Source of the DNA: Candidatus Kaiserbacteria bacterium RIFOXYB1_FULL_46_14
Lineage (GTDB): Bacteria > Patescibacteriota > Minisyncoccia > Phycocordibacterales > UBA918
Direction of reading: 5' to 3'
Assembly (NCBI GenBank): GCA_001783525.1
Contig: MFMS01000002.1
Coordinates: 208,135 to 244,959, forward strand
DNA length: 36,825 nucleotides
The notes below the pieces were generated by a model. It made no database searches. It had not been told where the DNA came from and saw only the letters and a program-made list of their open reading frames with translations. Shown in pieces: positions 21,838-22,250 of the stretch (position 1 is its first letter; each line of letters begins with the position of its first letter). The translations under genes were made by a program, and so were the position numbers.

Positions 21838-21929
21838 TGTCTAAATTATACACGGTGGCGCGGCGAAGCCGCACCACCGTCGGTTGGTAAACCGACACAC
21901 TTTAGGCTATGATAACCCCGCAATATTTT

Positions 21930-22016
21930 GGAGGGTTCGCATAGTGGTCTAGTGCGCCGCCTTGGAAAGGCGGTAAGGGGGAAACTCCTTCGAGGGTTCA
22001 AATCCCTCACCCTCCG
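21930..22016 (+). tRNA. tRNA-Ser(GGA)
   Basis: Acceptor GGAGGGT/ACCCTCC, anticodon arm CCGCC-TTGGAAA-GGCGG, long variable arm, T arm GAGGG-TTCAAAT-CCCTC, discriminator G. Confidence 0.97.
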
Positions 22017-22178
22017 CAAAATAATGAACGCAAAACGAACACTTGGAGTTTTGTGTGATTATATTTTGAGAGAGGTGGGAGGGATTTGAAAATCCTTTTG
22101 AGCTGAAATTAATTTAAAGAAAATTTTAGCCAAAAGGTATACTGCTCTGTAAGAGAAAAACTCCCTCACCCTCCGCCA
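22003..22178 (+). mobile_element. 159-bp tRNA-associated element bounded by a 15-bp duplication of the tRNA 3' end
   Basis: TCCCTCACCCTCCGC at 22003-22017 and 22162-22176; only the second copy continues as CCA; internal hairpins. Confidence 0.6.
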
Positions 22179-22201
22179 AGATTCATAATCAAAGATGGTA
22201 C

Positions 22202-22232
22202 AAAAAAACAGCGACTCAGGTCGCTGTTTTTT
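22202..22232. terminator. Bidirectional terminator
   Basis: A7-CAGCGAC-TCAG-GTCGCTG-T6. Confidence 0.85.
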
Positions 22233-22250
22233 GTTAGATAGTCTGCGGAG

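Follow-up and report, generated by a model that had tools for sequence, protein, structure and literature searches.

A structured insert behind tRNA-Ser(GGA) in a Kaiserbacteria genome belongs to a covarying family with arms matched to the host tRNA

In Candidatus Kaiserbacteria bacterium RIFOXYB1_FULL_46_14, the gene for tRNA-Ser(GGA) is followed on its 3' side by a 159-nt insert that terminates with an exact 15-nt repeat of the tRNA 3' end, and the question raised by this locus is what such an insert is and how it came to mirror the gene beside it. The locus lies in a stretch of contig MFMS01000002.1 (positions 208,135 to 244,959 of the forward strand) that was analysed as a whole, referred to as the window (36,825 nt), and all coordinates below are those of the window unless stated otherwise. 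This tRNA is the only one in the window: it was placed at 21930-22017 (+ strand) by ARAGORN, and the Rfam tRNA model gave 57.5 bits at 21930-22016. The insert is a member of a structured, covarying family that is linked to tRNA 3' ends and has arms matched to the host tRNA. As for the nature of this family, we lean, on balance, towards a mobile or selfish, non-autonomous composite palindromic DNA element of this architecture, specialised for the 3' ends of tRNA genes; mobility, the chemistry of insertion and the generation of the arms are the parts of this reading that we infer from sequence comparison.

The sequence TCCCTCACCCTCCGC occurred exactly twice in the window: at 22003-22017 (copy 1, the functional end of the tRNA, within both the ARAGORN and Rfam calls) and at 22162-22176 (copy 2), with 0 of 100 shuffles giving such a repeat. 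It comprises the end of the T loop, the 3' strands of the T stem and acceptor stem, the discriminator and one further base. The exact reverse complement of TTCAAATCCCTC (21997-22008) was found at 22079-22090 (12/12 positions; 0 of 100 shuffles), and complementarity extended inward between 22008-22023 and 22062-22077 (16 nt, 75%). Both the duplicated end and the antisense segment, including its imperfect inward continuation, had been claimed in the original prediction for this locus, and both were reproduced. The tRNA and insert folded as RNA (21930-22240) had an energy of -122.8 kcal/mol (z = -8.3), a value reached in 0 of 100 shuffles, and 21990-22180 folded as DNA gave z = -7.2 (0 of 200 shuffles). 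The 144 nt between the two copies are wholly accounted for by hairpins, without an integrase or cargo.

These hairpins are arranged on the + strand as follows. Folding placed hp1, an A+T-rich hairpin with the apical loop GAACACTTGGAG, at 22018-22068; the loop motif was present in four units of the same genome, and this 5' part is referred to as type 2. The antisense arm (22062-22090), defined by the two inverted repeats described above (I4, 12/12; I5, 16 nt, 75%), is complementary to the T loop, the 3' strand of the T stem, the 3' strand of the acceptor (imperfectly) and the trailer. It leads into a conserved module at 22083-22168 (positions 230217-230302 of the contig), which was matched by our covariance model R1 with 70.5 bits. 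Within the module, P4 is a long hairpin with one bulged A (22094-22137), corresponding to the second hairpin of the original prediction; it is followed by the unpaired conserved junction GGTATACTG (22136-22144) and by the hairpin P5, which is short and has the conserved loop TGTAA (22145-22155). After copy 2, a terminator-like hairpin with a 13-bp perfect stem, a 4-nt loop and a T run lies at 22203-22232 (inverted repeat I2), as had been expected; the consensus scan for terminators in the window did not call this hairpin, probably because the T run lies within its extended stem. Judged from its sequence, the window insert is a somewhat worn type-2 copy, since its acceptor antisense is matched at 75%. 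Over 35 nt, its hp1 shared 91% identity with that behind tRNA-Arg(CCT) of G016, another species.

The family was found by a DNA search of 41 related genomes, in which pieces of the insert, beyond the tRNA itself, were present at several sites per genome; by ARAGORN, the matching sites adjoined tRNAs for Arg, Gly, Trp, Tyr, Lys, Leu, Ile, Met and Ser. The units are small (approximately 135-175 nt), multi-copy and non-coding, and have the order copy 1, hp1, antisense arm, module (P4, junction and P5), copy 2 and native flank. The antisense arm ends at the complement of the T loop (...GGATTCGAA), P4 has the form AAGCTTTTGAG...CCAAAAGG, and the junction between P4 and P5 is GTATACTG (consensus, GGTRTACTG). 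Two kinds of 5' part were found at tRNAs: type 1 consists of a G+C-rich, terminator-like hp1, the acceptor antisense, a P2 hairpin (loop, CTGGGAG) and the T antisense, and type 2, the kind in the window, of an A+T-rich hp1 with the loop GAAnACTTGGAG and an uninterrupted antisense arm. In 37 of 68 first units, the tRNA and module were separated by a hairpin with a perfect stem and a T-rich tail, suggesting that the element usually supplies the terminator of the tRNA; the type-2 hp1 of the window is not of this kind. TRNA-independent members (type 3) have the order (GG)GTGAGA, P2, TCGCAAG, P4, GWACAG and P5, and their GTGAGA looks, by its sequence, like a T antisense arm that has become frozen (compare GTGAGATTCGAAG in locus L013).

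Conservation of the structure was observed in two alignments. In a MAFFT alignment of 20 module sequences evaluated with RNAalifold, 16 of the 19 pairs had compensatory changes, and TACTG of the junction was invariant in the 20-sequence seed alignment. In the R1-derived alignment (99 matches, 90 of them distinct), 95.1% of the cells were standard pairs and all 19 pairs changed on both sides: 15/15 in P4 and 4/4 in P5. The observed value was reached in 0 of 500 shuffles, and only 37-50% was obtained when the partners were slid by 1-3 columns. The R1 alignment was fitted to the model, and the MAFFT and RNAalifold result is therefore the independent one. Read on the tRNA-sense strand, G-U pairs outnumbered A-C (56 vs 26, of which 13 were at one pair), which points to selection on this strand, as either RNA or single-stranded DNA. 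A search with Rfam 15 gave no family for the module, and long hairpins gave sub-threshold matches to microRNA precursors.

Linkage to tRNA genes was complete in the window genome (G000; 632,575 bp in 8 contigs, 98% complete): all 11 R1 matches (E<0.01) were located directly 3' of a tRNA gene on the same strand, and 9 of the 41 tRNAs were occupied, namely, Ala(TGC) with two weak matches, Ser(GGA), Glu(TTC), Leu(TAG), Leu(CAA), Gln(CTG), Gly(TCC), Lys(TTT) with two, and Val(TAC). Among related loci, a tRNA on the same strand was present within 700 nt upstream of 66 of 91 unique units, representing 20 isoacceptors; the remaining 25 were mostly at contig ends, beside tRNA-like fragments or tRNA-independent. 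Matching of the units to their own hosts clearly exceeded that to other tRNAs: a direct copy of at least 13/15 was found in 41 of the 66 units against 34 of 3,960 pairings with tRNAs other than the host, a perfect acceptor antisense (10/10) in 17 against 4, and a perfect T antisense (9/9) in 33 against 117. The arms are complements of the 3' strand and not copies of the 5' strand of the tRNA. T loops that are not palindromic appear inverted in the arm (TTCAAAT as ATTTGAA), and the unit behind tRNA-Ala(TGC) has the arm GGACC, with A opposite a G-U pair of the tRNA. The scan of other tRNAs suggested with the original prediction thus found the same layout in this and related genomes, with an antisense arm that differs with each host, and the proposal of a non-autonomous element that targets tRNAs gained support from it.

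Two further observations concern tRNA genes. At G000:C4:60042-60242 and in L036, L052, L057 and L140, ARAGORN reported a 'tRNA-Ser(ACT)' adjoining tRNA-Ser(GCT); a serine tRNA with A34 is unusual for bacteria, and this call may represent a tRNA-like gene or a mis-call. In L094 (G169), a unit that lacks the proximal 3' end copy interrupts the T loop of a truncated tRNA-Lys, which is followed by an intact tRNA-Lys with a normal unit.

Which of the two tRNA ends is the original one was indicated by the native flank. In an empty locus (L027), tRNA-Ser runs straight into the sequence (T)AGAGCTAGCACGAG, its native 3' flank in this genus, whereas in filled loci this sequence comes after copy 2 (L034 and L018; similar in L014, L037 and L061); copy 2 and the sequence after it therefore represent the original tRNA end, and the extra DNA, as delimited by this comparison, is that from just past the last shared base of copy 1 to the end of copy 2. 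No island lies between the repeats; a full island there in relatives, with no conserved antisense arm, had been named as evidence against the original proposal. Copy 1 was always intact, and copy 2 was perfect in 23 of 66 first units. Where the two copies differ in these units, the arm was that expected from copy 1 at 27 positions and from copy 2 at 3, and fitted neither at 4. Since the arm tracks copy 1, it makes up, together with hp1 and the functional tRNA end, a single long palindrome in which matching is maintained, whereas copy 2 drifts. In the window genome, copy 1 is followed by AA and copy 2 by CA, so that the ends GCAA and GCCA had been read correctly; however, the C at position 22177 is replaced by A in two related strains, the contigs of which (X5 record 20 and X8 record 27) contain the insert in full otherwise, and the CCA after copy 2 is thus an accident of the window strain. 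Across units, CCA after the last copy was also inconsistent. The claim that the distal copy is a second functional, CCA-bearing 3' end was not supported by these comparisons.

The module was widespread among relatives of the window genome: R1 matched 125 of 128 genomes of the genus, with at least approximately 1,770 matches at E<=0.001 among the 34 candidates scored per genome, and 93 of 151 genomes of the order (82 of 131 genera; record titles, Parcubacteria/Paceibacterota), in counts that are not independent because the genomes compared are related species representatives. In the sample of the rest of the phylum, 1 of 150 genomes was matched. Five genomes searched in full had 23, 28, 36, 8 and 9 R1 matches. 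In a motif scan of species-representative genomes, the titles among the matches listed were almost all Patescibacteria or of the Parcubacteria group, including Paceibacterota, Nomura-, Kaiser-, Taylor-, Zambryskii- and Lloydbacteria, Minisyncoccia and many 'uncultured Saccharibacteria'; one contig of a metagenome-assembled genome of Bacteroidota was also among them. IMG/VR contained one module locus, a normal unit behind tRNA-Ser(GCT), and there was accordingly no sign of a phage carrier in these contigs. Many module copies were situated at contig ends. The DNA runs containing the window locus were labelled groundwater and soil, and none of the 20 runs listed was an RNA run.

R1 matches a longer variant of the module, 'CGAGTCGCGAC...', partly or not at all, and the true number of elements at tRNA ends is therefore above this count. 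The longer variant was seen in L022 (+176..+340), L031 (tRNA-Arg-GCG), L047, L009, L115 and L116. It has the pattern …TCGAAC(C/T)GAGTCGCG(A/G)CGAAG…CCGCGACGA…GGAGTGAG-hairpin-CCACGAGnGTGACCGA, with the same plan of sense and antisense arms. A second small repeat family (…TCAATTGAGTGAGT-hairpin-CGAACGAAAGCAGAnAGAAAGCTnTGCTTAC) was inserted at the same position inside the 3' strand of P4 in units of two genomes: the Ala-TGC unit of the window genome (G000:C2:191977-192135) and the second unit of L043. It was also found in the flanks in L130 and L131, and occurs elsewhere too. The Leu-CAA unit (G000:C5:47076-47144 region) has a run of 8 N bases within the P4 loop, which represents masked or unresolved sequence.

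Several patterns are those expected of a unit that moves. Arrays of two or three units were present in L040, L041, L043, L048 and L050, and in G004, the unit behind tRNA-Ser(GGA) had a type 3 unit nested within its P2 loop (L008). Among 16 tRNA-independent units, the two inside long open reading frames (ORFs), an 84-nt copy in an IleRS-like gene and another in a Tag-like gene, were both read through in frame and free of stops, which fits selection on translated insertions. In L108, tandem units behind a protein gene carry sense and antisense copies of the last 12 nt of that gene, with a compensatory variant. The target duplication was 15-21 nt at tRNAs, and none was evident at ORF or nested sites. 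At orthologous tRNA-Ser(GGA) genes, occupancy was patchy and the subtype differed between species. A tree of 60 module cores from three genomes (70 columns) was poorly resolved, with 31 of 54 inner branches open and 10 starred; its supported clades united units on different tRNAs and did not follow the host. Within genomes, these clades joined Ser-GCT with Ser-GGA (G016) and Cys, Glu and Trp (G004), and across genomes, Leu-TAG of the window genome with Met-CAT of G004, and the window unit with Lys-TTT of the same genome and a G004 unit; the Val(TAC) units of the three genomes did not group. Because clades mix hosts, one module lineage appears to occupy different hosts, with the arms re-matched each time. 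Clustering by genome was detected in G016 (12 label changes vs a shuffled mean of 20.2; 0 of 500 shuffles), but not for the units of the window genome (7 vs 6.7).

One tRNA-independent unit lies at the 5' end of an RNase HII-like gene (L117, G016:C1:32500-33450; …GIDEVGRGPLAGP…), and this unit is tandemly duplicated along with the start of the gene and its upstream region.

If the family is mobile, as we lean towards, the element would insert at the 3' end of a tRNA gene and leave the tRNA intact: copy 1, with hp1 as a new terminator, would serve the tRNA, and the original end would be pushed downstream as copy 2 and then decay. The arms would be made from, or kept matched to, the host tRNA, so as to form the long palindrome with hp1 and the functional tRNA end, and the hairpins of one strand, in single-stranded DNA or in RNA, would be the likely recognition structure for a putative trans-acting factor. 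Two mechanisms may be envisaged. In mechanism (a), recombination would occur via a folded hairpin resembling an attachment (att) site, in which copy 1, hp1 and the antisense arm together reproduce the target in double-stranded form; this predicts the order that was observed, namely, the element-borne end, the element and the original end. In mechanism (b), hp1 and the module would insert, and template switching at the hairpin would then copy the tRNA end into the antisense arm; such switching would keep the palindrome corrected, and may return at the near-palindromic T-loop sequence TTCGAA, which is also the start of the module. Since module lineages change hosts, the arms must be rebuilt from the target, and this would be explained by (b) and not by plain (a); on the other hand, (b) offers no reason for a constant P2 hairpin to lie between the antisense segments. 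A stronger version of the mobile reading may be put forward tentatively and is, in our estimation, less probable than its failure: a new kind of self-targeting mobile element, the folded hairpin site of which would reproduce the 3' end of the gene in front of it, usually a tRNA, and be rebuilt from the target at each move, which would colonise any tRNA harmlessly by bringing a 3' end and terminator with it, and which would be mobilised by the Xer-type recombinase, the replication machinery or a new enzyme family.

A number of results weigh against mobility. In the window genome, profile searches detected no Y1_Tnp, RVT_1, TnpB zinc ribbon, IS110 DEDD, resolvase, rve or Cas1. Y1 transposases were found in 90 of the 151 genomes of the order, and their presence was similar in genomes with and without the module: 56/93 and 34/58, respectively (odds ratio, 1.07). 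Contigs of four runs included none that joined across the window insert and no empty allele, and exact-match scans of metagenome contigs, which would miss diverged strains, gave 0 empty sites and 0 circle or tandem junctions for the window locus; we infer mobility, accordingly, from comparative patterns. The genome counts given above come from related species and are not independent. How the arms are re-matched to a new host is left unexplained by plain mechanism (a). In type 1, the arm has remained a perfect complement of copy 1 in spite of the decay of copy 2; this needs either selection or correction of the palindrome, and a function would be compatible with it too. Strong covariation and the G-U bias are equally compatible with a functional RNA, and the window copy itself may be transcribed, because no strong terminator separates it from the tRNA.

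The only tyrosine recombinase of the window genome is of the Xer type (XerC and XerD models: 188 and 180 bits, respectively, below the equivalog cut-offs), and is encoded at approximately 24-25 kb of C2, approximately 205 kb from the window element. An all-against-all BLAST of 883 ORFs from the loci compared revealed none that travels with the units; recurrent ORFs were spurious ones over repeats, syntenic neighbours and one secreted pilin-like family. Members of the latter in L071, L075 and L082 (up to 408 aa, with a conserved N-terminal hydrophobic segment) are near tRNA loci that bear units, and are probably unrelated cargo of other integrated DNA. Across the order, ORFs with partial Y1_Tnp (HUH) domains were approximately 220-260 aa, with a maximum of 13 in one genome, and bore no relation to whether the module was present. 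Other origins were considered and dropped: priming of a retro-element on the tRNA 3' end (the window genome has no reverse transcriptase), a casposon-like 15-bp duplication (no Cas1), a remnant of a group II intron (no domain V-like hairpin) and the generation of the antisense arm as P-nucleotides or by fold-back (the element itself carries hp1, and the end-points do not vary).

The most serious alternative, although we regard it as rather unlikely, is a functional structured RNA derived from the 3' trailer of the tRNA, or a mimic of the 'top half' of tRNA. The unit would be co-transcribed with the tRNA, the antisense arm and the 3' end copy would close a minihelix that bears P4/P5 in place of a T loop, and the RNA would be released by tRNA-processing enzymes or modulate the processing of its own tRNA. 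The very strong covariation, the conserved unpaired motifs (GGTRTACTG and TGTAA) and the bias on the tRNA-sense strand are all as expected of such an RNA, as is the retention of the module in nearly all genomes of the genus. The window copy, for which such a role is least unlikely, is, moreover, probably co-transcribed with tRNA-Ser(GGA), no strong terminator being present between them, and in the minimum free energy fold of the window transcript the distal copy closes the T stem and acceptor; the Rfam sX4 consensus likewise pairs the 3' strand of the T stem with a downstream G-rich arm, in a match far below threshold. However, the terminator-like hairpin that precedes the arm and module in more than half of first units suggests that most units would not be transcribed from the tRNA promoter, and the arm follows copy 1 and not the decaying copy 2. 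Patchy presence at individual tRNAs, the variable subtype, and copies that are in frame within ORFs or nested in one another are also difficult to reconcile with this function. An improbable explanation is a locally evolved, non-mobile structure, in which the terminator hairpins of tRNAs were extended by quasi-palindrome template switching and small duplications, and modules spread by gene conversion. It accounts well for arms that are exact Watson-Crick complements of copy 1 including the trailer, such as GGACC at Ala(TGC), for the failure to find a transposase in the families searched, and for the partial clustering of module variants by genome in G016; nevertheless, the units of the window genome did not cluster in this way, and the first arrival of a 90-nt module at 20 isoacceptors, in ORFs and in the loop of another unit, the constant T-loop end-points and the near-identical hp1 on different tRNAs in different species are left unexplained.

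A directly duplicated tRNA 3' end is the classic mark of tRNA-targeted integration, and the exact 15-nt copies of the window could on this account be read as an ordinary att scar, the remnant of a deleted integrase-borne island or prophage at the 3' end of tRNA-Ser. A scar-like case does exist in L018, at tRNA-Ser-GGA of G006, where a 50-nt duplication of the 3' half of the tRNA flanks a 143-nt insert with the 3' fragment of a different tRNA. The reading is nonetheless highly improbable for the window: the insert represents a conserved, structured kind of unit with many copies and a constant architecture, there is no cargo or integrase between the copies, the sole tyrosine recombinase is the distant Xer-type one, the same module on 20 isoacceptors is not specific for one tRNA, and the module was present at just one locus in IMG/VR contigs. 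We consider equally improbable an intron in the T loop or an alternative 3' end, in which the distal, CCA-bearing copy would supply the end of the mature tRNA once the insert had been removed, as the original prediction had also entertained. The use of the distal copy in the minimum free energy fold and its GCCA in the window genome suit this explanation, but the CCA varies between strains and units, copy 1 completes a standard tRNA and is always intact, copy 2 is often degenerate, and terminator-like hp1 hairpins follow copy 1 in many units. There was no match to an Rfam intron or ribozyme (E<=1 and E<=0.1), in searches not specifically aimed at the bulge-helix-bulge motif, and the in-ORF copies are kept in frame and stop-free, which an intron would not need.

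By analogy, the closest known system in behaviour is the Rickettsia palindromic elements (RPEs), in an unrelated taxon. To our knowledge, no transposase is known for RPEs. Like the present family, RPEs are hairpin repeats (100-150 bp) of reduced genomes that are found both between genes and in frame within genes, including one for an aminoacyl-tRNA synthetase; unlike it, they are not reported, in the portions of the accounts available, to have a link with tRNA 3' ends or to contain copies of their target in sense and antisense orientation. An RPE-7-like insert of 63-84 bp in Rickettsia PheT is described in the available part of one such account (PMC1779305).

Other similarities are with recombination sites. 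Integrases often cross over in the T loop of tRNA. At the att sites of tRNA-targeting phages and integrative and conjugative elements, the tRNA end from the T loop is duplicated, the proximal copy restores the gene and the original is displaced beside the native flank, as in the present family; however, attP is specific for one tRNA and has no internal antisense copy of the target, and the element of this family is without an integrase or cargo. The attC site of integrons and the attP(+) hairpin of CTX phage, which is used by XerCD, are folded single-strand recombination sites. They resemble the family in being long imperfect hairpins of one strand, with strand-specific conservation (the G-U bias here) and with a hairpin that reproduces the joining sequence, and an Xer-type recombinase is present in the window genome; the target of the family is nevertheless a tRNA end and not attI or dif.

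Short hairpin repeats mobilised in trans, often just 3' of genes and strand-specific, are also known: repetitive extragenic palindromic sequences (REPs) and REPINs, with the RAYT transposases, and the palindromic elements (PATEs) derived from IS200/IS605. The family differs in having no association with Y1 transposases (PF01797, 0 candidates in the window genome), and in making long target duplications and carrying target-matched arms, neither of which these repeats do. Miniature inverted-repeat transposable elements (MITEs) are likewise small, multi-copy and non-coding with no linked ORF, but no related transposase was found in the window genome among the seven families searched. As to terminal inverted repeats, the family does have inverted arms, but these are derived from the host and not constant.

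A further match in Rfam was weak. RF02223 (sX4) was matched with 24.8 bits and E = 0.0076, against a gathering score of 70, mostly through its tRNA part. The sX4 consensus has a tRNA followed by an arm that pairs with the 3' strand of the T stem and ends in GGUGAGA, which may be compared with the GTGAGA start of type 3, whereas its model has no P4/P5 module. In the available part of the original paper, sX4 is an orphan small RNA of 156 nt from Xanthomonas (PMC3300014), and, in that of another, sX4 hits fall on tRNAs (PMC11124144). The relation to sX4 is a weak lead. A conserved structured module combined with copies of the individual target in both sense and antisense orientation was, on these comparisons, present in none of the systems considered. 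A full-text literature search, which left subscription journals mostly outside, returned no description of such elements in Patescibacteria or Parcubacteria, and the family is apparently undescribed.

These genomes are among the smallest and most streamlined known; yet a fifth of the tRNA genes of the window genome carry a structured appendage of approximately 150 nt, and relatives have dozens. If the units are mobile, selfish DNA uses the most conserved genes of the cell as landing sites without breaking them, and a recombination activity missed by standard transposase searches would be indicated. If they are functional RNA, a large, strongly covarying RNA class is missing from Rfam. In either case, the units confuse the annotation of tRNAs and att sites, the prediction of islands and the assembly of such genomes, and they add extra peptide segments to essential enzymes.

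Upstream of the tRNA in the window, a promoter-like site, TTGGTA-18-TATGAT, is located at 21884-21913 on the + strand (consensus scan, 9/12 positions; a pattern match only). Before it, at 21852-21880, a strong terminator-like hairpin on the - strand (13 pairs, of which 10 are G-C) ends the upstream minus-strand gene.

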